A DNA stretch of 15,441 nt from Chlamydiia bacterium (GTDB lineage: Bacteria; Chlamydiota; Chlamydiia; Chlamydiales; 2-12-FULL-49-11), in NCBI GenBank assembly GCA_044359535.1, contig JBIKLZ010000029.1, positions 1 to 15,441 on the forward strand, read 5' to 3'. Made by a program: the position numbers and the translations under genes. This document shows positions 1 to 15,441 of this stretch, one piece after another (position 1 is the first letter of the stretch; every line of letters begins with the position of its first letter). The notes under the pieces were generated by a model, which worked only from the letters and a program-made list of their open reading frames with translations, was not told the DNA's origin and ran no database searches.

Positions 1-2
1 CC

Positions 3-2702
3 CGAGAATTTCATCCTACTAAAAATGGCGCTATTACTGCGGATCAAGTCCTAGGTGGTTCAGAAAAAAAATATTGGTGGAAATGCCCCAAGGGACCAGA
101 TCATGAATGGGAGGCTTCTGTTGGAAACCGAACTAAACAAAAGGGAACCGGATGTCCTTATTGTAATTGCGGTTGGACACTGGAAAAAATAAGACTTTTT
201 GTTAAAGATATTTTACCGCATTTAGAATGTCTTACCCCCGCAGAATTGTATGTGATTTTCCAACAGAATGGAATATTAAATTACCAAGGAAAAAATAAAA
301 CCTTTATTCAAGCTCTGAAAACTGGAAAATTTCCAAAAGATGAATTACAGAAATTTATTGATGGCGAACAATCTTTAGTGGATGAATTCATTGAAAATGA
401 AGACAAAGAGATTGATCAATTAGAAGAAAACATGCAAAAACTCTCATCTATTATTTCAGAAGAAGAGATTTCAAACCTAGAAGAAGAACTCCCCCTTGTA
501 GAAACCAAAGATGTTTTAGCTACTCTTAGTAATAAGATTATCTCAAACATTGATAAAGAGGCAATAGAGTTTTTTACTAACTCAGCTGTTGCAAAAATTT
601 GGCATCACGCATTTATTAATGAAAAAGCTGCTCTTGAGCAGCTTTCTGAAAGACCTTTAGATACCTACTCAGAAGAAGTCAAAGCAATATTTTTAGAGCA
701 ATATAATGGAACAAAAAGTTTAACCATCCCCTCTGGCTATAGTTTTAAAGTAAATGGAAAGCTATCCCCTCCTAACTTAATGCAGCAATTCACTGCGTTT
801 AGGGTGAAAACACGAAAAAGACTTGGTAATTGGTCTGGAACAGGTGCTGGAAAAACATTATCAGCAATCCTTTCTAGCAGAGTAATTGATGCGCGCTTTA
901 CTATTATTTGTTGTCCAAATAACGTCATAGAAGGGTGGAAAAATAATATAGAAACCATCTATCCAGATAGTGTAGTTTTTATCAAAGATACGAAGATAAC
1001 TCTTCCAGCAAATAAGCATTCCTATTTGATACTCAACTATGAGTTTTTCCAGCAACCTAAATCAGAGATCAAACTAAAGGCTCTTGTAGAAAGGGAAAAA
1101 ATAGATTTTATTGTCATCGATGAAATTCACTATTCTAAACAGCGAGTTGTTGACAACGTATCAAAACGTAAAAAAGCCATTTCAGCTCTTTTGTCAGAAG
1201 CAGCTAATAAAAATGAAAATCTATATACTATAGGAATGTCCGCTACTCCTGTTATTAACAACCTTTATGAAGGAAAGACCTTAGTTGAACTTATTACAGG
1301 TTTGCACCATGACGATTTAAACACCAAACCATCTGTTGGCAATTGTATATCCCTATACCAAAAACTAGTATCTAATGGGATTAGATGGCTTCCTTGCTAT
1401 CACCAAAAGATAGATGTGAAAACTGTTGAAGTCGATTGTGGTTCATATCTTGAGGAAATCAAAAATGTTAACCTTAAAGGTTCAATGGCTGATCTTGAGG
1501 CGATTTTAACCAAAGTAAAAATCCCAACAATTTTAGAAAATCTCAAACCAAAAACCATCATATACACCTACTATCTCAAAGACATTGTGGTCCCTTTGAA
1601 AGAAGCTATTGAACTGCAAGGTTGGAAAACAGCCATTTTTACAGGAGATGATAAAAGTGGTTTGGAGGAGTTTATTAAATTTGATGCAGACGTTTTAATT
1701 GCTTCAAGTTGTTTAGGTACTGGAGTTGATGGATTACAACATGTTTGTAACCGAATTATTATTAACACATTGCCATGGACTCATGCGGAATTTGAACAAC
1801 TTAAGGGTAGAGTCTATCGGCAAGGACAAAAAAGCGATCATGTCGACATTATTGTCCCTCTAACCTATGCAAATGTTAACGAAGAACGCTGGTCATGGTG
1901 TGATTCAAGGTGGAAGCGTATCCTCTTTAAAAAATCAATAGCAGATGCAGCTGTGGATGGAGTCATCCCTGAGGGTCACCTCAGAACTCCTGCTCAAGCG
2001 TATAAGGATATTATGAACTGGTTAAAACGATTAGAGGAAGGAAAACTACATGAGATTGAACGGAAGAAAATCAACCTTCAACTTTCGGAGGAAGCTGTTC
2101 AACAAGGTCTAAGAAAATTCGGCGATTTTTCTAAAATGAACCATCAGCTCAATTCTTCGAGCAGTGCCACGACTCATAAAAAATTTCAGAAGGATCCAAA
2201 AGATTGGGAATATTATCATTCTATGTATCGGGAAGCACGAAAAGGGTGGACTATTATCCCCTATAAAGAGGCTGCTAAATGGTGCAAAGCGAGACCACAT
2301 CTAGTTATTGGAGACTTTGGTTGTGGTGAAGCTTTACTTGCACAGGAGATTGAAAATATGATTTTTTCTTTTGATCATATTGCAGTTAATACAGAGGTAA
2401 CCTGTTGTGATATAGCTAATGTTCCGTTAGATGATGAATCTTTGGATGCTGCGATTTTTTCTCTTTCTCTTATGGGGACAAATTATCTTGACTATCTTAA
2501 TGAAGCTCATAGGTGTCTTAAATTAGATGGTCATCTTTGGATAGCGGAGACAACCTCTCGCTATAAAAATCTTTCTTCATTGGAAGGAGAACTTTCCAAA
2601 ATAGGGTTTGATCTTGTTAAAAAGCAAGAAAAAGGAAATTTTACTTTCTTACGGTTGATCAAAAGCGATAGACAGATATCTAGCTTGCAGATTTTTAGAT
2701 AA
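3..2702 (+). CDS. 5'-truncated multidomain protein: DUF4379-type zinc ribbon + SNF2-like SF2 helicase/ATPase + C-terminal Rrp8-like (Methyltransf_8) SAM-dependent methyltransferase
   Basis: The frame of ORF 246..2702 is open back to position 3 (REFHPTKNGAITADQVLGGSEKKYWWKCPKGPDHEWEASVGNRTKQKGTGCPYC), so the true start is outside the window. SF2 motifs: Walker A SGTGAGKT (~834-857), Ia ICCP, LNYE, Walker B DEIH (1119-1130), III SATP, V GTGVDGLQ, VI QLKGRVYRQGQ. C-terminus: VIGDFGCGEALLA (DFGCG 2313-2327), FSFD, CDIANVPLDDESLDAAIFSLSLMGTN, EAHRCLKLDGHLWIAE. Confidence 0.9.
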   Translation, partial: REFHPTKNGAITADQVLGGSEKKYWWKCPKGPDHEWEASVGNRTKQKGTGCPYCNCGWTLEKIRLFVKDILPHLECLTPAELYVIFQQNGILNYQGKNKTFIQALKTGKFPKDELQKFIDGEQSLVDEFIENEDKEIDQLEENMQKLSSIISEEEISNLEEELPLVETKDVLATLSNKIISNIDKEAIEFFTNSAVAKIWHHAFINEKAALEQLSERPLDTYSEEVKAIFLEQYNGTKSLTIPSGYSFKVNGKLSPPNLMQQFTAFRVKTRKRLGNWSGTGAGKTLSAILSSRVIDARFTIICCPNNVIEGWKNNIETIYPDSVVFIKDTKITLPANKHSYLILNYEFFQQPKSEIKLKALVEREKIDFIVIDEIHYSKQRVVDNVSKRKKAISALLSEAANKNENLYTIGMSATPVINNLYEGKTLVELITGLHHDDLNTKPSVGNCISLYQKLVSNGIRWLPCYHQKIDVKTVEVDCGSYLEEIKNVNLKGSMADLEAILTKVKIPTILENLKPKTIIYTYYLKDIVVPLKEAIELQGWKTAIFTGDDKSGLEEFIKFDADVLIASSCLGTGVDGLQHVCNRIIINTLPWTHAEFEQLKGRVYRQGQKSDHVDIIVPLTYANVNEERWSWCDSRWKRILFKKSIADAAVDGVIPEGHLRTPAQAYKDIMNWLKRLEEGKLHEIERKKINLQLSEEAVQQGLRKFGDFSKMNHQLNSSSSATTHKKFQKDPKDWEYYHSMYREARKGWTIIPYKEAAKWCKARPHLVIGDFGCGEALLAQEIENMIFSFDHIAVNTEVTCCDIANVPLDDESLDAAIFSLSLMGTNYLDYLNEAHRCLKLDGHLWIAETTSRYKNLSSLEGELSKIGFDLVKKQEKGNFTFLRLIKSDRQISSLQIFR

Positions 2703-2742
2703 ATTCATCTAACTTATCTCTTGAATAGATCAAAATTTTCAT

Positions 2743-2771
2743 TTAAAAGTTCTCATTCAAAATGTCATAAT
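2743..2771 (+). promoter_or_regulatory. Possible sigma70/sigma66-type promoter for the 217-aa gene
   Basis: TTAAAA (2743-2748), 17-bp spacer, TGt-CATAAT (2763-2771, extended -10 form). The AT-rich context weakens this. Confidence 0.3.
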
Positions 2772-2799
2772 TTAATAAAAGTCTAAAGAGATCGAATCC

Positions 2800-3453
2800 A
2801 TGTTATTAAAACACTCAGAACCTATTAAAAAATGGTTTAGCTTTCCCAAAAAGCTCAAATACGAATCTAAATGGATAATTATGTTCATTATTTTTTTAGC
2901 GCCTATTTTAATTTTTGTGTCTTACTTTAACCCTATATTTGGGAAAAAACTTCATCACTCCACCCAATGGTTAGGTAATATTTCACCTTTACTAATTGTT
3001 GTTGCTGGCTATTTTCTCAAAGAAGAAATAACCAACTGGCGTTACAAAACAAGGGCAGAAGCTGCGTCTGAAATTATTGGTAAATTTAGAGTTTGCTCAA
3101 AAGACTTAACTTACTGGGTTAATGCAGGGGGTGTGACACCAGCCACTGGCGAGGAAGCTGCCGGGCGTAAAATCCACCTTTCTATAAACAAATATGTGGA
3201 AAGCTGCCTAAAACCTTCTGCTCAATTTCCTATCCCCACTAGAAAGGAGTTAGACAATCATTTTAATAAGATGAGGGTGCTTGCAAACAAAATTTCAGGG
3301 AACTTAACCATTATTACTTCTCCCGAACCAAATAAAACCTTTGGACCTGAAATTACGATGAAAGCTTGTGCCAATCTTCAATCCCTCAACTCTAAGCTGG
3401 AAGAGATTCAAGATTTCTTGGATCAAAAACTTGGTCAGTACTTGGAAAGATAA
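2800..3453 (+). CDS. Hypothetical membrane protein (two N-terminal hydrophobic segments, soluble helical C-terminus)
   Basis: 217-aa ORF. Hydrophobic stretches WIIMFIIFLAPILIFVSYF and WLGNISPLLIVVAGYFL. No family recognised; the start could be the ATG at 2881. Confidence 0.7.
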   Translation: MLLKHSEPIKKWFSFPKKLKYESKWIIMFIIFLAPILIFVSYFNPIFGKKLHHSTQWLGNISPLLIVVAGYFLKEEITNWRYKTRAEAASEIIGKFRVCSKDLTYWVNAGGVTPATGEEAAGRKIHLSINKYVESCLKPSAQFPIPTRKELDNHFNKMRVLANKISGNLTIITSPEPNKTFGPEITMKACANLQSLNSKLEEIQDFLDQKLGQYLER

Positions 3454-3625
3454 GTAGAGTCATATCTTCTTCTAATCAATTTAATCAAATTTTAGGCGTC
3501 TAAGTCACCTTTCTTACTCTCCTTCTTTTATTGTAGAATAATTAAAAATAAGAACTTTTGTATCTTCATTAGAAAACTCTACCCTGATATATTTTAGAGA
3601 GTTCAGAGTTTTGTAGTAAACAAGT

Positions 3626-3667
3626 CTGAAAATCCGTAGGTCCACACTTCAAGTTTGCGCTGCCCCG
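3626..3667 (+). pseudogene. Degenerate 3' half of tRNA-Phe(GAA); probable attachment-site scar
   Basis: Canonical tRNA spacing: anticodon loop CTGAAAA (3626-32), 3' anticodon stem TCCGT, variable loop AGGTC, T-stem CACAC, T-loop TTCAAGT, T-stem TTGCG, 3' acceptor strand CTGCCCC (3660-66). No 5' half, no CCA, mismatched T-stem. Confidence 0.7.
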
Positions 3668-3690
3668 CTTCTATAAGTTTATTTCTCTCT

Positions 3691-3714
3691 ATCTTTGCAG
3701 TTAACTGCAAAGAT
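3691..3714. repeat. Perfect 24-bp palindrome ATCTTTGCAGTTAACTGCAAAGAT
   Basis: The sequence equals its own reverse complement; as RNA it forms a 10-bp stem with a 4-nt loop. It lies between convergent genes with no U-tract on either strand. Confidence 0.9.
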
Positions 3715-3834
3715 TAGGAGTATTATCATTTAAGAGAAATTTCATATTTATAAGAGTTATAAAGAACAAAAGAAAACCTCATCTAAATTTTTAACTAAAA
3801 CACCGCAGGCTATATAAAAATAGTACTGCTATAT

Positions 3835-4950
3835 CTATAAAAAAACTTCTTCAATCTCTATATGAGAGCTCTCTATTTGAAGACCAGGATCTCGTTTCAA
3901 AATTCGAGATGGATTAAAAGTTACTATTTTTATGGATTCTTTTACCTTATCAAAAGAATAGAAAGCACCAGGCAATACTTCATGTTTTATTCTTGGTGTT
4001 GCACCGACATTATTATCTAAGGGATTTTGTGCATAAGCTAGAAACTCTTGATACTGTTTAACAGAGGAAAAAGTTTTATCAAATGGATCTTGAGAAAGCA
4101 CAATAATTGGTGTAAGTTTTTCTGATGAGCAAAACCATCCAAAGCCTAATGCATGTATGATAAAGCTATCAATAGTATCATCATGTGGTCTAAGTAATTT
4201 TGCAGGATGAAAATCACTACTATATTTTCTTTTCAATCGCTCTAACTCTATTGCCATTATTCGGTAGGCACTAGTATTGATACCTTTTTCCCAAAACATA
4301 AAACAAAGTGCAGATAGATACTCTACCCATCTATGGGTTAGTTCCTTATCTCCTGGATATAACTTTGCAATCAGGGTCCTTCCATATCGATAAATAGCTT
4401 CTACTGAAAGGTCTTCTATGATATCTTTTATAAAATTTTCATTTAAATTTTCTTTTATGTAATTGTATTGATGTAAGAAAAGACTACTAGGATCCTTAAT
4501 TTGCTTATTTTGAAATTCGATTTGCATTTCGAAACTTAGCAATTGGAGGTCAGGTTCGTTACAATGCAAATGGTTATAAATACCATTGTATAATACCTCA
4601 TAGCCCTTATCAAACCCCTTACATAGTTTATGTAATTTTTCAGAATTTTTGACCTTGCATTTAAACTCTTTGACAGAGGCCTTCATAGCTTTTTTTACGC
4701 CTTCTTCAAGCGAAGGAATTATCTTTTCCAACCTCTGATGGATAAATTTTTGCTTGAAACCAAATAATTCAATAAATGCTACAGGGTGCTTGATCAAGTC
4801 TTCTGACTTTAAAGGAGCCACTAACTCCAGCGCAGCTTTGTTCTCTGATTTTTCCAGCTTCTCAATAAAAGAATCATATCTGTTTTTATCAGAAAGATAC
4901 CCAAAAGAGTTGGTATCGCAATAAAGAGGCCTTGAAATCTTACCATTCAC
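3835..4950 (-). CDS. Hypothetical protein with putative PIN-like nuclease motifs
   Basis: 371-aa ORF with GTG start and a good upstream promoter. N-terminal LYCDTN, then HPVAFIEL, and C-terminal HDDTIDSFII...IIVLSQD resemble the ordered acidic PIN motifs. Gene existence is well supported; the fold call is tentative. Confidence 0.6.
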   Translation of the reverse strand: MNGKISRPLYCDTNSFGYLSDKNRYDSFIEKLEKSENKAALELVAPLKSEDLIKHPVAFIELFGFKQKFIHQRLEKIIPSLEEGVKKAMKASVKEFKCKVKNSEKLHKLCKGFDKGYEVLYNGIYNHLHCNEPDLQLLSFEMQIEFQNKQIKDPSSLFLHQYNYIKENLNENFIKDIIEDLSVEAIYRYGRTLIAKLYPGDKELTHRWVEYLSALCFMFWEKGINTSAYRIMAIELERLKRKYSSDFHPAKLLRPHDDTIDSFIIHALGFGWFCSSEKLTPIIVLSQDPFDKTFSSVKQYQEFLAYAQNPLDNNVGATPRIKHEVLPGAFYSFDKVKESIKIVTFNPSRILKRDPGLQIESSHIEIEEVFL

Positions 4951-4965
4951 TATTTTTTTGACTAA

Positions 4966-4994
4966 AGAATAACATTTTTAAATCTTATATTCAA
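4966..4994 (-). promoter_or_regulatory. Sigma70/sigma66-type promoter for the 371-aa gene
   Basis: Minus strand reads TTGAAT (4994-4989), a 17-bp spacer ending in TGt, then TATTCT (4971-4966). The GTG start is 15 nt after the -10 box and there is no SD. Confidence 0.6.
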
Positions 4995-5045
4995 GACTCA
5001 GTTTATCTAAAAATTTACTATCTACATGATTTCTAGATATTCTGA

Positions 5046-5649
5046 CTAAAAGAAATATTTAGCGAAGCTACAAAGTTGTCTATGTGTTTAAAAGGAATTG
5101 ATGTAAGTAGTGAAGAGTATGGTGAAAAGACTTCTGATGATCTTTCAAGAAGAATGTCAGGTATCAGACTTCGAGAAGATCAACGAATTACTACTATGGT
5201 CGAAATCTTATTAAAACTCAGAACTCAGCAGGAAGAAGGTCTTATTTTTGCTTGTGGGGGCACTTCACGCAAAAGGATCAATTGATCAGTTTAAGAAGCT
5301 GAGATTGGATGATGAGGTTCTCTATTACTTCCCGCATTCATCAAGTCGCTATGATGAAAGTGTAGATGATATAGAAGTTCTCATGGATGGCACTTCAGGT
5401 ACTTTAGTAGATCATACGTACTTTTTGGCTCAAAAAGATATTAGGCCATTTTGCAAGAGAGTAATTGCTGAAATTACTGGAAAAACAAAGTATACAAGAG
5501 AAATTCTTGGTTACAACTCCCAATCTCAGTTTTTAAGTGATTATTTTAAAACAAACTTCAGAGCATTTCTTCGTCCAGGGTATCATGTAGATGCATTAGT
5601 AGATGCTACAGACAAAGGAAAACCAATAGAGAGATTGGATCGGAATTAA
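5046..5649 (+). pseudogene. Frameshifted, probably 5'-eroded and 3'-truncated hypothetical gene (ORFs 5076..5285 and 5248..5649)
   Basis: Removing one G from the G5 run at 5256-5260 joins the ORFs as ...EGLIFACGALHAKGSIDQFKK.... The first frame is open from 5046 with no ATG/SD start. The last codons overlap IS30 transposase sequence. Confidence 0.6.
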
Positions 5650-6210
5650 AAAGGTCACATACTACCATTGCTAGAGAGCTTAAAAGATGTGAGGCTCGCC
5701 TAGAGTACTCTCCGTCTAAAGTACACAGTCATGCTGGGAGACTTTTACCATCAAAAGGTAGAAAAACTATTATTGATATTAGGTCAAATGTTTGGTATGA
5801 GGCTATGCAAAAACTTGTAGAAGATTTTTCTCCAGAGCAAATTAGCAAGACAGTCAAAGCAGAATATGCTGATGAGCCTTTAAAGTGGATCTTTCATGAG
5901 ACCATTTATAAATATATTTATGCTACCCCAAAACGGGAATTAAGAAAAGTATTCACCTCTCACTTACGCAGAAAAAGACGGGAGAGAAAAGATTCCTTTT
6001 CATCTCATGAGCAAAGGGGAACAAATGAGAACACCAATGGGCTTTTAAGACAATATTTTCCTAAGCGGACTGATTTTACAAAGGTAACACTAGAAGAAAT
6101 CAAGTTTGCCCAGCATCGCCTGAATCACCGTCCTAGAAAAGTTTTAAATTGGCAAACACCGCAACAAGCATTTAAAAAACATCTTGGTGCGTTAAAAACT
6201 TGAATTCAAG
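5613..6210 (+). mobile_element. IS30-family insertion sequence remnant (transposase pseudogene with left-end and internal deletions)
   Basis: The frame of ORF 5805..6203 continues upstream as TNREIGSELKRSHTTIARELKRC (IS30 HTH). It then has FSPEQIS, HETIYKYIY and the C-terminal QRGTNENTNGLLRQYFPK...LNHRPRKVLNWQTP. The segment carrying the first two catalytic Asp residues is missing near 5990. Probable right end GGTGCGTTAAAAACTTGAATTCAAG (6186-6210). Left boundary approximate. Confidence 0.9.
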
Positions 6211-6248
6211 TTGTTCTTTTTCATAAAAAAATATATATAGTATTTAAT

Positions 6249-7088
6249 ATGAAAAAAACAATTCTCTTTTCAACAGTAATTCTTTCTCTTTCTCTAATTT
6301 TAGCGGCATCTATGGTTGTTTTTTTTAGTAGGGGAAAAGGGGATAATGAGCTCACGCTCTATGGAAATGTCGATGTGAGGCAGGTTGATATCGCCTTTAG
6401 AGTCAGTGGAAAAATTCAATCTTTACACTTTCAAGAGGGAGATAAAGTTAAACAAGGGGAGCTTCTTTGCTCTTTAGAAAAAGATCCCTATGATAGTTTA
6501 TTGCAAGAAGCTATAGCTCGTAAAGAGGTTGTTGAAGCTGACTACCTTAATGCAGAGCTTCAGTATAAAAGGCGATTAGAAGTCATTGATTCTGGGGCCA
6601 TTTCTGGCGAAGATTTAGATAATAGTTTAGCACGATACAAGGCTTTAAAAGCCTCTCTTGCAGAGGTTGAGCAGTCCATTGCTGTTGCAAAAGACAATTT
6701 AAACTACACTCAATCTTATGCACCCAACGAGGGGATTATTTTATCACGCATTCGAGAACCTGGAAGTGTTGTAAATCCTGGAAATCCTGTCTACACACTT
6801 TCTTTAGTTTCCCCTATATGGATCCTTGCCTTTGTCGATGAGCCCAATTTAGGGGTTGTTCATTATGGAATGGAGGCCACTGTCTACACCGACATCAAAG
6901 GGGGAAAGCGCTATAAGGGAAAGGTGGGGTACATCTCTTCCATGGCAGAGTTTACCCCTAAATCTGTACAAACCACTGCTTTAAGGACAGATTTAGTCTA
7001 TCGAATAAGGGTATACATCGACAAACCAGACAATCAACTTATTCAAGGGATGCCAGTGACTGTAAAATTGCACCTTGATAAGGGGTGA
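6249..7088 (+). CDS. ybhG: HlyD-family membrane fusion (periplasmic adaptor) protein, YbhG-like
   Basis: N-terminal TM anchor. LYGNVDVRQVDIAFRVSGKI lipoyl-like motif and AEFTPKSVQT..LRTDLVYRIR signature. First gene of the ABC operon. Confidence 0.9.
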   Translation: MKKTILFSTVILSLSLILAASMVVFFSRGKGDNELTLYGNVDVRQVDIAFRVSGKIQSLHFQEGDKVKQGELLCSLEKDPYDSLLQEAIARKEVVEADYLNAELQYKRRLEVIDSGAISGEDLDNSLARYKALKASLAEVEQSIAVAKDNLNYTQSYAPNEGIILSRIREPGSVVNPGNPVYTLSLVSPIWILAFVDEPNLGVVHYGMEATVYTDIKGGKRYKGKVGYISSMAEFTPKSVQTTALRTDLVYRIRVYIDKPDNQLIQGMPVTVKLHLDKG

Positions 7089-8797
7089 TCCTTTTGAAAG
7101 AAGGTGCGATCAATATAAAAGGGCTTGTAAAGCAATTTAAAGGAAATAACGATTTTACTTTAACAGTGGAGGGTGCAAACATCCCTGAGGGAAAAATTAC
7201 AGGTATTGTAGGTCCAGATGGAGCTGGAAAAACCACTTTAATACGTATTTTAGCTAACCTTTTACCCTTCAACCAAGGTTCAATTACAATCCTTGGAAAG
7301 GATCTTTCTAAAGAATACGAAAAAATTACCGATCAGATGGGCTATATGCCTCAAAAATTTGGTTTATATGAGGATTTAACCGTTATTCAAAACTTAAATC
7401 TTTATGCAGAACTTAAAGGAGTGGCTAAAAATCATAAGGAGCAAGTTTTTCAAACCCTTTTAGAGTTTACACATTTAACCCCCTTTCAAAAGCGATTTGC
7501 AAAACATCTATCGGGGGGGATGAAGCAAAAGCTGGGTCTTGCCAGTGCATTAATACAAAAGCCCTCAGTGCTTCTTCTTGATGAACCAAGTGTTGGGGTC
7601 GACCCTATTTCAAGGAGGGAACTTTGGGCTATTGTTCAAGGTCTTAGCAGGGAAAATGTCACAGTAGTGTGGAGTACAGCCTATTTAGATGAGGCTGAAA
7701 AATGTGACAACGTCTTATTACTTAATCAGGGGCAACTTCTATATCAAGGAAATCCTAAAGAGCTCACTGAAAGATTAAAAGACCGGGTCTTTATGATCCT
7801 TCCAAAAGAAAAAGATAAAAGAGAAGAGCTTTTTAATTATCAAAAAAATGAAGAGATCATCGATGCACTCATTCAAGGAAACTACATTCGTGCAGTTATA
7901 AAAAAGGATGCTCCTTCTTTAAGAGGGCTAAATATTCAAAGTGTTTCCCCCCGTTTTGAGGATGCTTTTATCGATATTTTAGGGGGAGGAATAAAAGAGG
8001 CTTCTAAGCTTGCACATAGTTCCCCTCAAAAGGCAAAAGGGGAAAATCTCCCTATTGTAGCAAAAGATCTTCTTAAAATGTTTAATGCCTTTATTGCAGT
8101 AGATAGGGTCTTTTTAGAGGTAAAACCCGGAGAGATTTTTGGCTTATTAGGTCCAAACGGAGCGGGTAAAACAACTATTTTTAAAATGCTTTGTGGCCTT
8201 TTACAACCCACTTCTGGAGAAATCTATGTCAATGGGTTAAATGTAAAAACTTCTCCTGATAAAGCCCGAATGAATATTGGCTATATGTCTCAAAAATTTT
8301 CTCTTTATGGAAACTTAAGTGTTATCCAAAATTTAGATTTTTTTGCTGGTATGTATGATTTGCACTATCAAAGAAAAAAAGAGGCAATAGAGGAGATGAT
8401 TGATATTTTTAAGTTAGAGAATTTCCTCTCTTTTAATGCAGAAACGCTCCCTTTAGGGTACAAACAACGGTTAAGTTTAGCCTGTGCTAACATGCATAGA
8501 CCCTCTATACTTTTTCTTGATGAACCCACATCAGGAGTAGACCCCCTTACAAGGCGGGAGTTTTGGAGTCATATCAATGGACTTGTGAGAAAAGGGGTCA
8601 CTGTCATGATCACTACCCATTTTATGGAAGAGGCCGAATACTGTGATAAAATTGCCTTTATTTATCAGGGAAAAATTGTTAAAACAGCCTCTACTACTGA
8701 AATAAAAAATGAGGCAATCACACATGCAATCCCTAATCCCACCCTTGAGGATGCGTTTATTCAGATGATTGAGACAATTGATGGGGGCTTAAAATAA
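7085..8797 (+). CDS. ybhF: ABC transporter ATP-binding protein with two ATPase domains, YbhF-like
   Basis: Domain 1: GPDGAGKTT, LSGGMKQK, LLLDEP. Domain 2: GPNGAGKTT, LPLGYKQR, LFLDEP, TTH. The GTG start overlaps the upstream TGA. Confidence 0.92.
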   Translation: MILLKEGAINIKGLVKQFKGNNDFTLTVEGANIPEGKITGIVGPDGAGKTTLIRILANLLPFNQGSITILGKDLSKEYEKITDQMGYMPQKFGLYEDLTVIQNLNLYAELKGVAKNHKEQVFQTLLEFTHLTPFQKRFAKHLSGGMKQKLGLASALIQKPSVLLLDEPSVGVDPISRRELWAIVQGLSRENVTVVWSTAYLDEAEKCDNVLLLNQGQLLYQGNPKELTERLKDRVFMILPKEKDKREELFNYQKNEEIIDALIQGNYIRAVIKKDAPSLRGLNIQSVSPRFEDAFIDILGGGIKEASKLAHSSPQKAKGENLPIVAKDLLKMFNAFIAVDRVFLEVKPGEIFGLLGPNGAGKTTIFKMLCGLLQPTSGEIYVNGLNVKTSPDKARMNIGYMSQKFSLYGNLSVIQNLDFFAGMYDLHYQRKKEAIEEMIDIFKLENFLSFNAETLPLGYKQRLSLACANMHRPSILFLDEPTSGVDPLTRREFWSHINGLVRKGVTVMITTHFMEEAEYCDKIAFIYQGKIVKTASTTEIKNEAITHAIPNPTLEDAFIQMIETIDGGLK

Positions 8798-9922
8798 ATG
8801 ATATGTCTACGAAGGATTAAAGCCCTTCTTTTAAAAGAGGGGATGCAAATTATAAGGGATCCAAGTACTCTTTTAATCACTGTTTTTCTCCCCCTCTTAT
8901 TGATCTTCATCTATGGATCAGGGGTCTCTTTGGATATTAAACATCTAAAAATCGCCCTTGTTTTAGAAGATCGATCCAAAGAAGCTTTTGACTTTTCTTC
9001 AACCTTGACACACTCTCCCTATTTTGAAGTGACTACAACAAATCATCGACACTTTCTTGATGAAAAGCTGATGGAGGGTTCAATAAGTGGTCTGATTGTG
9101 ATCCCTAGCTATTTTACAAAGTATCTCCATAGAGAGGGGAAAATTGCCCCCATCCAACTTATTGCCGATGGTTCAGAGACAAACACGGCAAATTTTGTGA
9201 TTAACTACGTCAATGGGGCCTATACAAATTTTCTTACCCAAGAAGTACTTGCAAAAAGCTCCCTTGTAGAAAAGCCTATCATCAATGTTAAGTCCCGTTT
9301 TTGGTATAATGAAGAACTTGAAAGCAGATATTACATCCTTTCTGGATCTCTTGCGATCACAATGACTTTAATTGGAGCCATGCTTACTGCATTAGTTGTT
9401 GCAAGAGAATGGGAAAGAGGGACGATGGAGTCGTTACTTTCTACGCCGGTAAGAAGTCTTGAACTTGTCTTAGGAAAAGTGTTTCCCTATTTTGCCCTAG
9501 GGATGATTTCAATGGCTATTTGTGTCGCCTTTACAGTTGTTGGATACAAAGTCCCCTTTAGGGGCTCGTATTTACTTTTAACCCTTGTTTCAGCAGTCTT
9601 TTTATACTGCTCTTTAGGGCTTGGTTTGATGATCTCAACAATTGCAAAAAGTCAAGTTCTTGCTTATCAAATCACTTTAATTGTCGCTTTCCTTCCCGCC
9701 TATATGCTCTCGGGTTTTTTATTTGAAATCTTAAGTATGCCTACATGGATACAAATGATGACAACCTTTATTCCTGCAAAATATTTTGTCCAAAGCCTTC
9801 AAACACTATTTCTTGTCGGAAATGTCTGGAGCCTTATTTTTTTCGATATTCTTGTCATTGGTTCTATTGGTTCCATTTTTTTTATCATCACCGCCTATAA
9901 AACAGAGAGGAAAATCTCTTGA
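8798..9922 (+). CDS. ybhS: ABC-2 type transporter permease, YbhS-like
   Basis: KEGMQIIRDPS, RFWYNEELES and VVAREWERGTMESLLSTP motifs. Multiple TM segments. Starts immediately after the ybhF stop. Confidence 0.9.
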   Translation: MICLRRIKALLLKEGMQIIRDPSTLLITVFLPLLLIFIYGSGVSLDIKHLKIALVLEDRSKEAFDFSSTLTHSPYFEVTTTNHRHFLDEKLMEGSISGLIVIPSYFTKYLHREGKIAPIQLIADGSETNTANFVINYVNGAYTNFLTQEVLAKSSLVEKPIINVKSRFWYNEELESRYYILSGSLAITMTLIGAMLTALVVAREWERGTMESLLSTPVRSLELVLGKVFPYFALGMISMAICVAFTVVGYKVPFRGSYLLLTLVSAVFLYCSLGLGLMISTIAKSQVLAYQITLIVAFLPAYMLSGFLFEILSMPTWIQMMTTFIPAKYFVQSLQTLFLVGNVWSLIFFDILVIGSIGSIFFIITAYKTERKIS

Positions 9923-11028
9923 ATCGGATTTTTTCCCTTATAAAAAAGGAACTTTTAACAGCTTTTAAAGATAAAAAGATCCGCCTTTCCCTCCTTGTTC
10001 CCCCAATCATCCAATTTTTTGTCTTTACTTATGCAGCCACTTTGGATGTAAAAAATGTCCCCATTGGAATTTTAAACAAGGATAACGGGAAAAAAGGGGT
10101 TGAGTTAATCGAGCGCTTTTTGGGAGCAAAAACCTTTAATAAACATATGTACTTTTTACAAAATGAAAAAGAAATTGCCCCATTTATTGATAAACAAAAA
10201 GGGATTATGGTTTTATCGATAAATGAACATTTTTCAAGAGATCTAGAAGGGGGAAAGGTCACTGAACTACAACTTATTTTTGACGGGAGAAAAAGTAATA
10301 CCGCTCAAATTGTTGCTGGATATGCAACAGAAATTATCCACACCTTTAATATGGAAAAAATAAACCCATCAGGTGGAGGTCTTGTCAATACGGCAATTAT
10401 TCCAAGAGTATGGTTTAATCCAAATTTACACTATTATTGGTATAACATTCCCTGCTTAGTGGTGATCTTAGCCATGGTTCTATGTCTTGTGATCACAACA
10501 CAATCAATAGCTAGAGAAAGAGAAATGGGGACATTTGATCAACTCCTTGTCTCCCCACTTCTCCCTTTTGAAATACTTATTGGAAAAATAGTTCCAGGAA
10601 TTATTGTGGGGCTCTTAGAAGGGCTTTTGATGCTTTTAATAGGGACATTTCTTCTACAAGTCCCTTTCACAGGCTCTTTCATCCTTTACACAATAAGTCT
10701 TTTTGTTTTTGTAAGTTCTATAAGTGGGGTAGGGCTTTTTATTTCCTCATTGTCAGCAACTCAACAACAAGCGATGTTTGGGACATTTTTCTTTATGCTC
10801 CCTTCAGTGTTACTTTCTGGATTTGCAACCCCCATTGAAAATATGCCTTCCTATTTTCAAATAATCACATATGCCATTCCATTAAAATATATGCTTGTCA
10901 TTTCTAAGGGCCTTTTTTTAAAAGCCATGTCAGCAAAAATGGTTTTTAGTCAACTTTGGCCCCTGATGGTCATTTGTGTAGTCAATGTGAGTGGGGCAAC
11001 TCTTTTTTTTAGAAAGCGAATTCAATAA
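9919..11028 (+). CDS. ybhR: ABC-2 type transporter permease, YbhR-like
   Basis: LIKKEL, DGRKSNTAQI, WFNPNL, SIAREREMGTFDQLLVSPL and LLSGFATPIENMP motifs. The TTG start overlaps the upstream TGA. Confidence 0.9.
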   Translation: MNRIFSLIKKELLTAFKDKKIRLSLLVPPIIQFFVFTYAATLDVKNVPIGILNKDNGKKGVELIERFLGAKTFNKHMYFLQNEKEIAPFIDKQKGIMVLSINEHFSRDLEGGKVTELQLIFDGRKSNTAQIVAGYATEIIHTFNMEKINPSGGGLVNTAIIPRVWFNPNLHYYWYNIPCLVVILAMVLCLVITTQSIAREREMGTFDQLLVSPLLPFEILIGKIVPGIIVGLLEGLLMLLIGTFLLQVPFTGSFILYTISLFVFVSSISGVGLFISSLSATQQQAMFGTFFFMLPSVLLSGFATPIENMPSYFQIITYAIPLKYMLVISKGLFLKAMSAKMVFSQLWPLMVICVVNVSGATLFFRKRIQ

Positions 11029-11113: not shown

Positions 11114-11569
11114 ATGAGTGTTGATTCTATCTGAGGTAAAAGCTTTGAAGCATTAGATAACGATTATAAAGAGATGTTATCCACTGGAGATCAAAAAATG
11201 CGCGCGCTAAATGCGATAATAGATGTAGCACAAAAAGTTTTAGAGTTTATAAAAAGCAATAACCGTCCTGAAACATATGAAATCAGGACAAAGCATCGTC
11301 ATGCAATCCTCTCATTTATGAACAAAAAAAGAGCCATCTATAAGGATGTTGTTGATCATATTACATCTATCGAAACGTGGCAGAAAAAGGTAGAGGAAGT
11401 TTTTCTAGGAACCATTGGATTCAATTGTTTATCCCTTTCAATACCGATAGCAAGAGAACTTTTAGATCAAGAAAGGTGGTTATATAAGCAGATAAAACAC
11501 TTAAATTTGCAAATAGAGCCCGATGCTAATGATGGAGCTTCTGAACTCGTTAGTTTTTTTATGGTGTGA
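11114..11569 (+). pseudogene. Hypothetical gene with an in-frame TGA at codon 7 (residual ORF 11174..11569)
   Basis: TATAAT at 11076-11081, SD AAGGAG at 11103-11108, ATG at 11114. Reads MSVDSI*GKSFEALDNDYKE then continues in frame into MLSTGDQK...; the TGA is at 11132-11134. Confidence 0.65.
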
Positions 11570-11684: not shown

Positions 11685-12293
11685 ATGGCATTAGATGAGG
11701 CAGCAGATAAAGTTAAGGAAATAAGCAACATCCTTTATAAGGAAACTGTTTTACCCGCTAAAGAAGAGGGGAAAAAGATCATAAAAGAGGCTCAGATCCT
11801 TGCTGAGCAAATCATCAATAAAGCAAAGGAGGAAGCCGATCATATTGTTAAAGAAGGCTTATCCCACATCCATGAGGAAAGAAAAGTTCATGATGCGTCT
11901 TTAACTTTAGCGGTAAAGCAAGCCCTTGCAACGGTAAAAAACAGTGTGATGCATCTTTTTCAAGAGGATTTATTAACACGTTTACAAATCACTTTAAACG
12001 AGCAAAAGAATCTAGAAGATCTCCTTAAGACCTTGATGGATGGGATAAAAAAAGAGGGTATCTCTTCAGATTTAAAGCTATTTGTTGCAAAAGGGGTTGA
12101 TTTTGATAGTTTAAGTAAAAGTGTGATTGCTTCTGTAGAAAAAAGATTAGAAAAAGGAGAGGTGGAGCTTTCTTCTGGAATAGCCCTTTTAATTAAGGAT
12201 AAAAATTTCACCCTTAAAATCACTGATAAAACATGTATGGATCTACTTGCCGATAAACTCCCTCCAATTTTAAGAGCTAAGGTCTTTGTGTAA
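11685..12293 (+). CDS. ntpE: V/A-type ATP synthase subunit E
   Basis: 202 aa with an N-terminal coiled coil (ETVLPAKEEGKKIIKEA...AEQIINKAKEEADHI). AAAGGA SD. First gene before DUF2764 and subunits A and B. Confidence 0.85.
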   Translation: MALDEAADKVKEISNILYKETVLPAKEEGKKIIKEAQILAEQIINKAKEEADHIVKEGLSHIHEERKVHDASLTLAVKQALATVKNSVMHLFQEDLLTRLQITLNEQKNLEDLLKTLMDGIKKEGISSDLKLFVAKGVDFDSLSKSVIASVEKRLEKGEVELSSGIALLIKDKNFTLKITDKTCMDLLADKLPPILRAKVFV

Positions 12294-12296
12294 TTT

Positions 12297-13076
12297 ATGA
12301 GTCTATTGTTTGCCTACTCTAGTTTGCCCCCTTTAGATTTTTCAGGTTCATCGACCCTTTCAATTAAAACCTTCTATGAGCTTGTAGAAGCGACCCTAAC
12401 AGAAAAGGGTAAAGAGGCTCTATCCTCTTTAAAAAGAATCATCGATATAAAAAACATATTTTCTTTACAAACCGGTGTTTTATTTGATCCAAAAGGGAAT
12501 CTTTTAGAACAACAACTCCGCCTTTCTATAGCCGAGCTTGAAGATCTCCCTCCTTATATTTTAGACTTTTTAGAAGAAAACAAAGAGCCTAAGGCACTTT
12601 TAGAAAACATACCTAAACTCTATACCCTTTTTTATAAAGAAGAAATCTCTAAAGGGGGGGTTATAAAAAAATTCTTAGCTTTTGAAAGAGATATTCAACT
12701 CCTTCTTTTTGGGTGTGCGGGAAAACAATTAGGGGTCGATCTTGAAAAGTTTTTGAACTATGAGGATCTAACTGATCCCATAGTGGCTCATCTGTTTCTC
12801 CAAAAGAAAAGTTCATCCCCGTTTATTTTTCCTTATGAATATAAAGCTTTGGAAGAAAAGTTATTAAAAAGTGGCGCTAATCCAATGAAACAGTATTTAA
12901 GTGTGGCTACGTACCGTTTTGATTTTTATAAAGGGCTATTTGAGGAAAATATGTGCACTTTTGAGGGGATTTGTGCCTATATGATGTGTTTATGGATTCT
13001 AGAAGAAAAGAAAATGCTCGATGAAAAGCAGGGTCGAAAGGTCTTAATCGAATTAGTGGAGGGTGAAAATGAGTAA
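12297..13076 (+). CDS. DUF2764-family protein (putative V-type ATPase subunit C equivalent)
   Basis: N-terminal SSLPPL, FLAFERDI and C-terminal LDEKQGRKVL. Sits between subunits E and A, as in chlamydial, spirochaete and Bacteroidota operons. Confidence 0.8.
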   Translation: MSLLFAYSSLPPLDFSGSSTLSIKTFYELVEATLTEKGKEALSSLKRIIDIKNIFSLQTGVLFDPKGNLLEQQLRLSIAELEDLPPYILDFLEENKEPKALLENIPKLYTLFYKEEISKGGVIKKFLAFERDIQLLLFGCAGKQLGVDLEKFLNYEDLTDPIVAHLFLQKKSSSPFIFPYEYKALEEKLLKSGANPMKQYLSVATYRFDFYKGLFEENMCTFEGICAYMMCLWILEEKKMLDEKQGRKVLIELVEGENE

Positions 13077-14838
13077 AACAACTGGCAAGGTGATTTTTGT
13101 CCTTGGAAATTTAATAAAAGTAGAATTTGATCACGAACTTACTCAAGGGGAAATAGGCTATGTTCAGGTGGGTGAAGCTTCTTTAAAAGCTGAGGTGATC
13201 GCAATTAGTGGCAAAGAGGCAAAGTTACAGGTCTTTGAAGACACTCGAGGGATTAAATATCACCAAAAGGTTGTCTTTACAAAGGAACTGTTAGAAATCG
13301 AACTAGGGCCTGGGTTGTTGGGACAGATTTTTGATGGGTTGCAAAATCCATTAGAAAAAATTGCCGATGTGTCAGGACTGTATTTAGAAAGAGGGGTCTA
13401 TATTGAGGCTCTTGATCGGGTTAAACGTTGGCCGTTTACCCCAAAAGCCATTATTGGGGAAGTTGTTTCTAGAGGAAGTATTTTAGGGACAGTTCCAGAA
13501 TCCCATTTTACCCATCAGATTTTTTTACCGTTTTCTCTTTATGGCAACTATAAAGTAGAGTGGGTGGCACCAAATGGCAATTACTCGGTCGATGCTGAAA
13601 TTGCAAGGGTTAAAGATGAGGATGGGGCTATACATTCCATTTCAATGATTCAAAAATGGCCGGTAAAATTTCCTTTAATTGAGGGTAAAAAGCTTGTGCC
13701 AAGGGAGATGATTTGTACAGGACAGAGGGTGATTGATACAATGACCCCTTTAATGAAAGGGGGAACAGCCTGTTCACCTGGACCATTTGGGGCTGGAAAA
13801 ACCGTGTTACAACAAGGGATATCAAAATATTCAAACGTCGATATTGTCATATTAGCAGCCTGTGGAGAAAGGGCTGGAGAGGTTGTTGAAACCTTAAAAA
13901 CCTTTCCAAAGCTCAATGACGTTCATACAGGGATGCCTTTGATGGATCGAACCTGTATTATTTGTAACACTTCCTCAATGCCTGTAGCTGCTCGTGAAGC
14001 CTCTGTATATGTTGGAATGACAATAGCTGAGTATTATCGTCAAATGGGCCTTGATGTGCTCCTTCTTGCGGATTCAACCTCAAGGTGGGCTCAAGCCATG
14101 CGTGAAATGTCAGGTCGTCTTGAGGAAATTCCTGGAGAGGAGGCTTTTCCCGCTTACCTTGCTTCTAGAATTGCTTCCTTTTATGAAAGGGCGGGGGTTT
14201 TACAAACAAAAGAAAGTGGGCAAGGATCAGTTTCTGTTTTAGGAGCTGTCTCTCCTGCAGGGGGAAATATCAATAGTGATCCTGTATCGCAAGAGACCTT
14301 AAAGTTTGTGGGAGTTTTTTTATGTTTATCAAGAGAACTATCCGATGCACGAAAGTATCCAGCGATTGACTCCATTCAATCTTGGTCAAAATACTCTGAG
14401 AGGGTAAGTCAAACGATGAAAAAGCATTTTCCTCTTTGGGGAACGTGGGTTGTTAAAGCTCGAAACATCATGATTGCTGGCGATGAAATTGGAAGACGAA
14501 TGGAGGTTGTGGGGAAAGAAGGGACAAGTATGGAGGATTATTTAGTCTATCTTAAGGCAGAGCTTTTTTCTTTTGCCTATTTGCAACAAAACGCCTTTGA
14601 TAAAGAGGATGTTTATTGCGGATTAGATCAACAGCAACAGCAATTTCGTTTAGTGAATGAAATTTTTGATCAAGAATTTGATTTTTCCTCAAAAGATCAA
14701 GCAAAAGAGTATTTCTTACAGTTGCAAAATCAGCTGAGAAACCTTAATTTCCTCCCTTTTAATACAGAAAAATATCACAGTCTCATGACAGAGATTAGGG
14801 AAAGACTAGAAAGAATTGAAGAAAAGGTGGGGGGGTAA
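13069..14838 (+). CDS. ntpA: V/A-type ATP synthase subunit A (catalytic)
   Basis: Walker A GPFGAGKT, ACGERAGE, NTSSMPVAAREAS, ADSTSRWAQAMRE, PGEEAFPAYL. ATG at 13069 is preferred over GTG at 13063 because of the GGAGGG SD at 13058-13063. Confidence 0.96.
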   Translation: MSKTTGKVIFVLGNLIKVEFDHELTQGEIGYVQVGEASLKAEVIAISGKEAKLQVFEDTRGIKYHQKVVFTKELLEIELGPGLLGQIFDGLQNPLEKIADVSGLYLERGVYIEALDRVKRWPFTPKAIIGEVVSRGSILGTVPESHFTHQIFLPFSLYGNYKVEWVAPNGNYSVDAEIARVKDEDGAIHSISMIQKWPVKFPLIEGKKLVPREMICTGQRVIDTMTPLMKGGTACSPGPFGAGKTVLQQGISKYSNVDIVILAACGERAGEVVETLKTFPKLNDVHTGMPLMDRTCIICNTSSMPVAAREASVYVGMTIAEYYRQMGLDVLLLADSTSRWAQAMREMSGRLEEIPGEEAFPAYLASRIASFYERAGVLQTKESGQGSVSVLGAVSPAGGNINSDPVSQETLKFVGVFLCLSRELSDARKYPAIDSIQSWSKYSERVSQTMKKHFPLWGTWVVKARNIMIAGDEIGRRMEVVGKEGTSMEDYLVYLKAELFSFAYLQQNAFDKEDVYCGLDQQQQQFRLVNEIFDQEFDFSSKDQAKEYFLQLQNQLRNLNFLPFNTEKYHSLMTEIRERLERIEEKVGG

Positions 14839-14842
14839 AGGT

Positions 14843-15441
14843 ATGCAAACTGTATATGAAGAGATCTTAGAGATTAGTAATAGTATTTTTATCGTTGAAG
14901 CGGAAAATGTTGAAATTGGTGAAATGGTCTGTGTCGATAAAAAGGATAGGACAAAATTGTATGGACAGGTCATCAGCTTTGATGGAAAAAAGGTTGCTAT
15001 TCAAGCAATGGGGGATACAAGGGGGCTTTGTACAGGGGACAAAACTGTTTTTCTAAAAAGAAAAATGAGGGTTGTTGTTGGAGATGCTCTCCTTGGAAGG
15101 GTTCTTGGAGCAAGTGGAAATCCTCTAGATGACGGACCTATGCTAGATGGATTAGAGATTGAAATTGGGACCCCTACTGCAAATCCAGTACGAAGAATTA
15201 TTCCCCATAGAATGATTCAAACCTATATTCCAATGATTGATTTATTCAACACCCTTGTTGAATCTCAAAAACTCCCGATCTTTACTGTTCCAGGAGAGCC
15301 TTATAATGAATTGTTAATGCGTATTGCGAACCATACCGATGCCGATGTGGTTATTATTGGCATTATGGGTGCACGATTAGATGATATGCATGCATTTATT
15401 GAAAACACCAAAAACACAGGGGCGTTAAATAAGACCGTTAT
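14843..15441 (+). CDS. ntpB: V/A-type ATP synthase subunit B (partial, runs off the right edge)
   Basis: Not in the ORF track. Manual translation gives MQTVYEEILEISNSIFIVEAENVEIGE...LLGRVL...NPVRRIIPHRMIQTYIPMIDLFNTLVESQKLPIF...YNELLMRIANHTDADVVIIGIMG, open to the window end. Confidence 0.95.
   Translation, partial: MQTVYEEILEISNSIFIVEAENVEIGEMVCVDKKDRTKLYGQVISFDGKKVAIQAMGDTRGLCTGDKTVFLKRKMRVVVGDALLGRVLGASGNPLDDGPMLDGLEIEIGTPTANPVRRIIPHRMIQTYIPMIDLFNTLVESQKLPIFTVPGEPYNELLMRIANHTDADVVIIGIMGARLDDMHAFIENTKNTGALNKTV

Follow-up and report, generated by a model that had tools for sequence, protein, structure and literature searches.

Fusions of a zinc-finger array, a Snf2-type ATPase and an Rrp8-type methyltransferase: a mobile gene family of candidate site-directed nucleic-acid methyltransferases

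The first gene of a 15,441-nucleotide contig from a lake Chlamydiia bacterium (JBIKLZ010000029.1; this whole stretch, C37 among the 57 contigs of a 1.21 Mb genome that is 92.6% complete, is called the window below) encodes, in one chain, a zinc finger, a Snf2-type ATPase and a methyltransferase of the Rrp8/nucleomethylin (NML) type. This architecture is not a one-off: it belongs to a large family that extends across many phyla, archaea and phages. The explanation that we favour, and to which we give a probability of roughly 45%, is that its product is an array-guided methyltransferase of nucleic acids, coupled to a motor within a single chain, which belongs to the mobile and conflict gene pool and most likely acts on double-stranded DNA. 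An earlier reading made from the letters of the window (the sequence-only reading) had proposed a recognition module, a translocase and a methylase of that pool, and this proposal fits the occurrence of the gene in few related genomes, the mobile-element and defence genes among its neighbours and the copies carried by phages.

In the explanation that we favour, the tandem DUF4379 fingers (72 residues each, usually five to seven of them, with a charge of about +3 apiece) would bind a long site specific to each protein, through a variable surface to which the second β-strand, the short helix and the loop joining the two zinc knuckles contribute. The Snf2-type ATPase, anchored at the bound site, would pump or distort the adjacent duplex, and the C-terminal Rrp8-type domain would methylate the bases that it is offered. 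Homology would point to N1 of adenine as the target atom, so that Watson-Crick pairing would be blocked, and the modified DNA, be it that of a rival element or a phage or a selected site of the chromosome, would be marked or disabled.

Domain organization of the protein

The reading frame is open at its 5′ end, because the window starts at the first base of the contig and the assembly thus cuts the gene. The part of the gene that it holds is organized as follows.

3..2702, + strand: motor-methyltransferase gene, 3′ part; 899 codons plus stop, 5′-open at the contig end
3..167, + strand: last DUF4379 treble-clef zinc finger; residues 1-55 (Pfam, invariant columns, repeat HMM)
171..767, + strand: acidic linker region, conserved and mostly helical; residues 57-255 (alignments, model secondary structure)
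768..1982, + strand: Snf2-type two-lobe ATPase; residues 256-660 (Pfam, Foldseek, PHROGs)
2100..2699, + strand: Rrp8/nucleomethylin-type class I S-adenosylmethionine (SAM) methyltransferase; residues 700-899 (PF05148, 2zfu, Foldseek)

The three domains named by the sequence-only reading were borne out by Pfam, by the solved structure 2zfu and by Foldseek, and regular-expression searches found every motif that it had quoted within the 899-codon frame. Residues 1-55 match DUF4379 (PF14311; E 5e-19, 68.6 bits against a cut-off of 24.5) and carry the four zinc ligands of that domain (C28, H34, C51 and C54). The C-terminal knuckle of this finger reads CPYCNCGW, the conserved form in which arrays terminate across the family. 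The linker that follows has a net charge of -14 and a low-confidence model loop at residues 146-162; it matched no Pfam family, and a search of the ESM Atlas gave no usable match.

Within the ATPase, ResIII (residues 264-416; E 5e-11, 43.3 bits) and Helicase_C (511-608; E 2e-6, 28.8 bits) score above their Pfam cut-offs, SNF2-rel_dom (280-432; 24.9 bits) scores exactly at its cut-off, and DEAD scores below it (20.1 bits against 26). By regular expression, Walker A is found at residues 279-285 (GTGAGKT, with GAGKT at 281), followed by DEIH (373-376), SATP (413-416) and QLKGRVYRQGQ (599-609). This superfamily 2 (SF2) motif set, carried on two RecA-like lobes, places the domain among the Snf2 ATPases. 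Further blocks, CPN.V..W after motif I, TPV.NNL.E after motif III and LPW....F.Q..GR..R.GQ, likewise resemble the Snf2 consensus. Among phage protein families, phrog_62, annotated as a DNA helicase, was matched (E 1e-38). An AlphaFold2 model of all 899 residues, built from a 113-sequence alignment (pLDDT 84.7, pTM 0.71), was compared with the Protein Data Bank (PDB) using Foldseek: ranks 3-50 were exclusively Snf2-family motors or bacterial RapA, the Snf2 folds including Mot1, BAF/PBAF, ISWI, INO80, CHD1/4, CSB, ALC1, SMARCAD1 and DDM1. On this model, the motor is of Snf2 type rather than a DEAD/DExH RNA helicase.

The methyltransferase matches Methyltransf_8 (PF05148) over residues 707-889 (profile positions 13-199 of 219) with E 4e-47 and 161.2 bits against a cut-off of 27, which is 136 bits more than Methyltransf_11 and speaks against a generic small-molecule methyltransferase, the outcome named beforehand as damaging to the proposal. 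The stretch GDFSKMNHQLNSSSS begins at residue 707, motif I reads GDFGCGEA (770-777, with DFGCG at 771) and FSLSLMGTN occupies residues 819-827. The only solved structure matched by sequence is the methyltransferase domain of nucleomethylin, 2zfu (E 1e-37, query 709-883), a match that far exceeds chance; its chains A and B also head the Foldseek list (target-normalised TM 0.86-0.87, rmsd 2.1-2.2, 204 columns, 35-36% identity). Profile and fold superposition agree in assigning the domain to the Methyltransf_8/RRP8 family, and the claimed likeness to Rrp8 along the whole methyltransferase is thus upheld. The absence of an NPPY-type motif was confirmed as well: no [NDS]PP[YFW] motif occurs in the window protein, nor in the last 230 residues of any of 115 family members. 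No nuclease family was matched in the window protein in Pfam or NCBIfam.

We then placed the domain in a tree of 135 methyltransferase domains taken from 387 proteins. The tree comprises the domains covering at least 170 profile positions among P0242-P0387, together with P0001 and seven named relatives; fragments were not included, nor were the remaining close relatives (P0002-P0241). The seven identified eukaryotic Rrp8 proteins fall in a single clade of 27 rows (SH-aLRT 100), set apart by the longest internal branch (0.84). This clade holds no Snf2-fused row, and the window's domain lies outside it. Built without an outgroup, the tree does not tell which of the two, eukaryotic Rrp8 or the family of prokaryotes and phages, gave rise to the other.

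The likeness to Rrp8/NML (35-45% identity to proven writers of N1-methyladenosine (m1A) in rRNA) brings in the main rival of our explanation, since the studied relatives of both end domains are all ribosome-associated. Here the fingers would bind structured rRNA or a ribonucleoprotein, the SF2 motor would remodel it, and m1A would be written on large-subunit (LSU) rRNA or tRNA, the outcome being an accessory ribosome modification, an antibiotic- or toxin-resistance mark, or a translation poison. We consider an RNA target fairly unlikely. It has in its favour that the solved DUF4379 domains are all found in mitoribosomes or their assembly intermediates, mt-SAF33 being counted among the factors on an immature rRNA region, but the motor is of Snf2 type and the methyltransferase lies outside the well-supported eukaryotic Rrp8 clade. 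Snf2-family enzymes translocate on duplex DNA and are not known to do so on RNA.

Structure, variability and exchange of the finger array

The zinc ribbon of the sequence-only reading is a genuine zinc finger; it is not a single module, however, but the last unit of a multi-finger, hypervariable array, because the continuation of the gene on another contig (described below) adds further fingers. Full-length relatives mostly carry five to seven tandem fingers of 72 residues. With a repeat HMM we found 679 repeats of 71-72 residues in 115 proteins, the mode being six per protein (47 proteins) and the range one to nine. Seven examples scanned with Pfam gave six to eight DUF4379 units, except for one in which a tyrosine-integrase N-terminus stands instead. 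The longest array that we saw belongs to a cyanobacterial metagenome-assembled genome (MAG), in which locus L040 (G062:C8) has 14 tandem DUF4379 fingers in a frame of 1939 codons.

A three-finger model of L014, the copy of a Simkaniaceae MAG and the closest full-length relative, was obtained from 60 aligned segments with a pLDDT of 94.3. Each modelled unit consists of two short helices, a β-hairpin with the C and H ligands, a short helix and a CxxC knuckle. The zinc ligands C40, H46, C62 and C65 are near-invariant, as are W37, W38, W48, R55 and N20, and the mean net charge per repeat is +3.06 (n=679). Column entropy over the 564 non-terminal repeats showed that the most variable of the 72 positions are 6, 22, 33, 49, 51, 53, 54, 57, 58 and 60; on the models, those from 49 to 60 fall in the second strand, in the helix and in the loop that leads to the second knuckle. 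Variable positions are about 2-fold enriched in R, K, N, Q and S, and the 564 repeats display 551 distinct 7-residue signatures. A small code of the TALE kind was considered as a simple model and rejected because of this number of signatures.

To compare arrays with the rest of the protein, we took pairs with equal repeat number (at least five) whose post-array bodies align over more than 600 residues, and calculated identities at variable positions of repeats with the same index, in the scaffold, and at variable positions of non-corresponding repeats. Substitution rates were obtained for selected loci.

Body identity 90-100% (11 pairs): variable positions, same index, 35%; scaffold, 65%; variable positions, non-corresponding repeats, 13%
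Body identity 40-50% (390 pairs): variable positions, same index, 13%; scaffold, 49%; variable positions, non-corresponding repeats, 12%
L013 vs L014: array dS 1.81, dN 0.46; body dS 0.48, dN 0.05
L013 vs L015 (same array): dN/dS 0.10 in the array and 0.10 in the body
L016 vs L018 (same array): dN/dS 0.14 in the array and 0.09 in the body

A divergent array beside a conserved body means that the array has a history of its own, namely recombinational replacement followed by conservation. Our results indicate that arrays are exchanged as cassettes and are then kept under purifying selection. Judging from the sequences, this pattern is the signature of a target-recognition module whose target would be lineage-specific. 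It is also hard to square with the conserved rRNA target of the RNA-directed alternative, as arrays are almost wholly different even where bodies are more than 90% identical.

The nature of the target is suggested by related proteins. Tandem units similar to CapR, DUF4379 and DUF723 have been reported to serve phage homing endonucleases as DNA-binding modules (PMC12350094), and in Lausannevirus such units are joined to a restriction-endonuclease domain (PMC5513546). Because related tandem units are taken to be DNA-binding modules in homing endonucleases, the array would read a long DNA site. A bolder version of this idea is that the DUF4379 array is a modular, exchangeable DNA-reading scaffold that steers a motor-coupled N1-adenine DNA methylase, with Rrp8 as its domesticated offshoot; we hold it to be unlikely, if worth keeping in view. 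One 72-residue finger would then read a few base pairs through combinatorial residues on the strand-helix-loop surface, and the protein would direct the writing of a pairing-blocking DNA mark to chosen sites in genome conflicts.

Distribution and genomic context of the family

A word-index search yielded 984 relatives from 7994 candidates, Heimdallarchaeota and Thermoplasmata being among the names. The best 120 of the 984 measure 963-1536 residues and are 45-85% identical to the window protein over its 899 residues; nearly all of them combine DUF4379, ResIII/Helicase_C and Methyltransf_8. A search with the methyltransferase domain alone recovered 2869 cluster representatives among 1.84 billion at E <= 1e-3 (334 at E <= 1e-30). 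We scanned 45 representatives, and 44 join Methyltransf_8 to at least one SF2/Snf2 ATPase family. The exception, P0379 (693 residues), has methyltransferase families only and falls in the eukaryotic Rrp8 clade. Ahead of the core, those 44 carry DUF4379, DUF723, INT_rpt, Sigma70_r4 with one finger, or no recognised family. The N-terminal module is hence interchangeable on one Snf2 plus Methyltransf_8 core, Sigma70_r4/HTH_7 with fingers being among the variants. National Center for Biotechnology Information (NCBI) labels for members read 'zinc-ribbon domain-containing protein' or 'RRP8 family class I SAM-dependent methyltransferase'.

In a collection of species genomes we confirmed 339 loci out of 493 pattern matches. 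The best 80 of these include intracellular-type taxa, namely Chlamydiota (Simkaniaceae, Parachlamydiaceae, Rhabdochlamydiaceae), Dependentiae/Babeliales and Berkiella, as well as Verrucomicrobiota, Planctomycetota, Cyanobacteriota, Melainabacteria, Chloroflexota, Gemmatimonadota, Myxococcota (many of them Polyangiaceae), Tectimicrobiota and archaea. One member, L062, matches an open frame of 1407 codons in the complete chromosome of Novipirellula sp. SH528. Chlamydiota, Dependentiae/Babeliales and Berkiella are intracellular bacteria of protists, and they hold the closest relatives (55-88% identity). Together with a methyltransferase of eukaryotic nucleolar type, this could point to a secreted 'nucleomodulin' acting on host rDNA, chromatin or ribosomes. 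We regard such a role as very improbable: the same architecture (44-55% identity) is common in cyanobacteria, Planctomycetota, Verrucomicrobiota and Myxococcota, which are mostly free-living, and occurs in phages, and the eukaryotic Rrp8 clade is separate.

Distribution is patchy at close range. The protein was found in 4 of 61 genomes of the genus, family and order, the present one included (2 of the 41 that are at least 90% complete), and, within the genus, in one of eight other genomes (G005, 83% identity). Such rarity does not fit a ribosome-directed enzyme well. Two relatives of its family and order have partial copies, at G017:C69:1771-3798 and G023:C22:3540-5718, in which only the finger-linker-ATPase part is present, interrupted by one TAA or split over two frames; these suggest that the gene may be decaying in some Chlamydiota lineages.

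No conserved partner gene accompanies the family. When 1061 open reading frames (ORFs) from 80 loci and the window were clustered, no neighbour family occurred in more than ten loci; the commonest, a tyrosine integrase, was present within 10 kb at 10 of the 80 loci, and the next families at four or fewer. We then considered the 118 nearest ORFs of at least 90 residues on either side (Pfam threshold 1e-5), of which 81 had no Pfam match. Genes of mobile-element or defence type among the rest comprise two integrases, a DDE transposase, a reverse transcriptase, gp25, HNH_5, NERD, Mrr_cat, Uma2, a type I R subunit, SIR2_2, Abi_C, a Tad2-like protein, Peptidase_M78 and a primase-type finger (CHC2). 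Housekeeping genes (PheRS, MutS, sigma-70, lactate permease) are also found.

The family is carried by phages. Searching IMG/VR, we obtained 12 loci from 58 pattern matches, on contigs of 16-379 kb. Six viral copies were scanned with Pfam: L093, L094, L096 and L097 have INT_rpt, DUF4379 or HTH N-termini, and L095 and L101 have no recognised N-terminal family. Neighbours were scanned at L093-L097 and at L098, which replaced L101. Those of L093-L096 and L098 are of phage type (terminase, lysis amidase, NUMOD/GIY-YIG or LAGLIDADG homing-endonuclease genes, DNA methylases), so that these contigs, at least, are phages; the neighbours of L097 are not diagnostic. HTH or integrase-repeat N-termini in phage copies are a further difficulty for an RNA target. 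At L096 (6548-13235), the Snf2-Rrp8-type gene and a GIY-YIG/NUMOD gene have on one side an mnmA-like tRNA methyltransferase gene that is complete and on the other a second copy of that gene's 3′ third, an arrangement that looks like a mobile cassette bringing, or leaving behind, a replacement gene end.

Phage carriage is also what would be expected of a self-protective methylase working in the manner of P1 DarB, in which the motor tracks the DNA of its own element and nucleases of the host or of rivals spare what has been marked. Snf2-methylase dyads with DarB as archetype occur in phages and conjugative elements (PMC5512222), and the window protein matches phrog_11801, a phage 'DNA methyltransferase' profile of DarB-like size (2269 positions), weakly and in the helicase lobe only (E 3e-8). 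We find this role rather improbable, as blanket marking needs no long and highly specific finger array, the methyltransferase is not of N6-adenine type and is C-terminal rather than N-terminal to the motor, and many chromosomal copies have no recognisable element around them.

Overall, this is a large, horizontally mobile and patchily spread family whose function is undescribed in the literature that we searched. Full-text searches, whose scope did not extend to supplementary files and other collections, returned no account of it: DUF4379 was mentioned in passing, PF14311 nowhere, and Methyltransf_8/PF05148 in an unrelated context only.

The gene copy of this genome and its neighbours

The gene is present in a single copy in its own genome, and its 5′ part was located on contig C26 (minus strand, 1..585), with the start codon, an HTH_38 domain and two further DUF4379 fingers. 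The end of C26 overlaps the first 137 bases of the window at 99% identity, and a second stretch of C26 matches window positions 6-164 at 98%. The first ~56 codons on C26 (the 5′ 170 nt) encode an HTH derived from an IS30-type transposase. In the window, 2.9 kb downstream of the gene, lies a remnant of such a transposase whose first 113 nt (5613-5725) are 94% identical to the 5′ end of the gene (G000:C26:406-585).

5613..6203, + strand: IS30-family transposase remnant, lacking the first ~19 codons and the catalytic core; phrog_4646 matches at 5805-6200 (E 1e-28)
2800..3453, + strand: 217-aa ORF with no assigned function; no Pfam, PADLOC or PHROG match

From this 113-nt likeness it follows that the gene and three ORFs are bracketed by direct copies of an IS30 segment, a layout that could stem from a composite transposon that has since decayed, or from insertion into the gene of a transposase.

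The HTH continues into the fingers without a change of frame, and contigs of public lake-water runs span this junction in X1, X3 (192-nt records) and X4; X1 and X2 may be the source sample itself. The fingers of this copy agree with one another in 44 of 45 residues (98%); for the family, the mean of this identity is 54% and its 95th percentile 74%. In Logan unitigs, the depth of finger units relative to unique flank is ~3-4.6x in X1-X3 and 1.7x in X4. Summed contig depth is not copy number, and we give the finger count as at least two to three; the ratios suggest that there are probably more, with several collapsed copies.

These features raise the possibility of a decaying remnant with no current role here, in which the 5′ end was replaced in an IS30 event and the array was reduced to repeats of a single finger. 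The IS30-derived 5′ end, the near-identity of the fingers and the broken or partial copies of G017 and G023 agree with it. Against this, the 899-codon body is uninterrupted and keeps all invariant residues of the family, dN/dS relative to the closest relatives is 0.10, the in-frame junction is found in X3 and X4 as well as in X1, the possible source, and HTH plus fingers occurs naturally elsewhere in the family. We judge decay to be unlikely on the whole. Targeting by this copy may be altered or lost, because of its IS30-derived N-terminus and near-identical fingers.

Beyond the gene, the window continues with four ORFs without family match, then an HlyD/ABC/ABC-2 exporter and then a V-type ATPase operon. 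The first of the four, the 217-aa ORF, also follows the gene in L014, its closest full-context relative, with ~70% amino-acid identity; it was not found in the other 79 loci compared and is possibly a lineage-specific companion. PADLOC gave no match for the four hypothetical neighbours, and for the window protein it gave only weak matches to helicase lobe 2. PHROGs gave none for the ORFs at 2800-3450, 3838-4950, 5248-5646, 11174-11566 and 11685-12290, and no tRNA gene that could serve as attachment site was found in the window. The exporter (6249-11028) comprises an HlyD-type adaptor, an ABC ATPase with two nucleotide-binding domains and two ABC-2 permeases; the V-type ATPase set (12297-15439) comprises DUF2764 and the A and B subunits. 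Along with the taxa of the closest relatives, these genes fit a Chlamydiota genome.

We also looked for the insertion boundaries. The flank at 2703-6300 has no usable match in five genomes of the same genus, whereas the transaldolase side of C26 does match, and in G005 the gene lies on a contig other than both flank homologues. No boundaries could be drawn from this comparison. The same-genus genomes share just ~70-76% identity, conserved genes included.

Discussion

Several observations weigh against an array-guided DNA methyltransferase. The characterised relatives of the methyltransferase act on rRNA only and not on DNA, Rrp8/NML writing m1A in rRNA helix 25.1 (PMC6085284). Solved chains with the DUF4379 fold are solely kinetoplastid mitoribosomal proteins and assembly factors: mt-SAF33 (6sga_Fd; E 9e-12, Z 10.8, rmsd 1.3 over 65 residues against the finger model), mS66 (6hiv_DS/7aor_at) and a DUF4379 protein of an LSU assembly intermediate (6yxx_E2), all 12-32% identical to the bacterial array model. 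Of these, mt-SAF33 is listed among the factors on the immature h22/h23 region of 9S rRNA (PMC8784144). A wide VIA-align search with the three-finger model reached Z >= 2 in four chains, all of them kinetoplastid mitoribosomal DUF4379 proteins; it found no DNA-bound analogue, which does not by itself show absence, and there is no DUF4379-DNA complex. The match to the DNA-binding domain of I-TevI is marginal (E 0.018). Each of the five genomes checked for paralogues has one copy, and hence no range of specificities. PADLOC contains no system that matches the family, and the 118 immediate neighbours include neither a repair enzyme of the AlkB type nor any clear immunity partner. The count of mobile-element or defence types among the 37 Pfam-matched neighbours (at least 15) is purely descriptive. 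Finally, the copy in the window is itself possibly non-functional.

Taking both sides together, the best reading of the sequence evidence is a motor-coupled methylase of the conflict-system kind, with an unusual class of methyltransferase and a finger array as its targeting module. An enzyme directed to RNA or the ribosome would account poorly for a Snf2 motor, for arrays that are exchanged as cassettes and for so patchy a distribution.

Comparison with known systems places the protein between several of them. The domain of Rrp8/NML, the eukaryotic 25S/28S rRNA m1A methyltransferase, matches along its whole length, with GDFGCGE and (F/C)SLSLMGTN common to both; the window protein lacks the N-terminal region of Rrp8, however, and its domain is fused behind a Snf2 motor and a finger array, in a family that is prokaryotic or phage-borne, patchy and outside the eukaryotic clade. 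Type ISP restriction-modification enzymes (LlaGI/LlaBIII) carry recognition, SF2 translocase and methyltransferase on one chain, with an Mrr/PD-(D/E)xK nuclease at the N-terminus, an N6-adenine methylase of NPPY type and a C-terminal target-recognition domain (TRD). Compared with these enzymes, the window protein has no nuclease detectable with Pfam or NCBIfam and no NPPY-type methylase, and recognition would fall to an N-terminal finger array instead of a C-terminal TRD; it is not a Type ISP enzyme. Its likeness to DISARM DrmD, BrxH and DpdE is weak and confined to helicase lobe 2 (DrmD 30.8 bits against a cut-off of 610, DpdE 18.2 against 500), and no drm, brx or dpd partner genes are found near the gene in the window, so that it does not belong to DISARM, BREX or Dpd. 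Fungal DNMT5 joins a Snf2 ATPase to a cytosine-5 DNA methyltransferase. It offers an analogy for a Snf2 motor coupled in cis to a base methyltransferase, with a different methyltransferase class and domain order and in eukaryotes, and we claim no homology beyond the Snf2 fold.

Closest in its logic is the dyad of Snf2 ATPase and DNA adenine methylase with DarB as archetype, described in 2017 (PMC5512222). There, the dyad is a recurring theme in conflict proteins of phages and conjugative elements, motor and methyltransferase share one polypeptide, and translocation-coupled methylation is likewise the proposed logic; the N6-adenine DNA methylase lies N-terminal to the motor in giant multi-domain proteins, and Rrp8 is absent from that text. 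The window protein differs in its Rrp8-type domain C-terminal to the motor and its N-terminal zinc-finger array, and is not DarB-like. For recognition, the closest parallel is with the homing-endonuclease and giant-virus 'restriction endonuclease' proteins, which place three to five or more tandem units of the same finger family before an effector. The effector here is a motor with a methyltransferase and not a nuclease, and arrays are longer (mode 6, maximum seen 14).

If the arrays do read DNA, they would constitute a third natural multi-module scaffold for DNA recognition in prokaryotes, beside TALE-like repeats and homing-endonuclease modules, and one already wired to a motor and a base-modifying enzyme, which would make it of interest for targeting tools. 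Should the methyltransferase place m1A, or some other mark, on DNA, this would be new chemistry for prokaryotic DNA modification and conflict systems. Since N1-adenine methylation, as expected from homology to Rrp8/NML, abolishes pairing, the enzyme would be a site-directed device for disabling or marking DNA in conflicts between genomes and mobile elements. Its methyltransferase is of a type otherwise known only from the eukaryotic nucleolus, and we know of no explanation for the origin and chromatin link of eukaryotic Rrp8/nucleomethylin. The family described here is the first large prokaryotic and phage context for these proteins.

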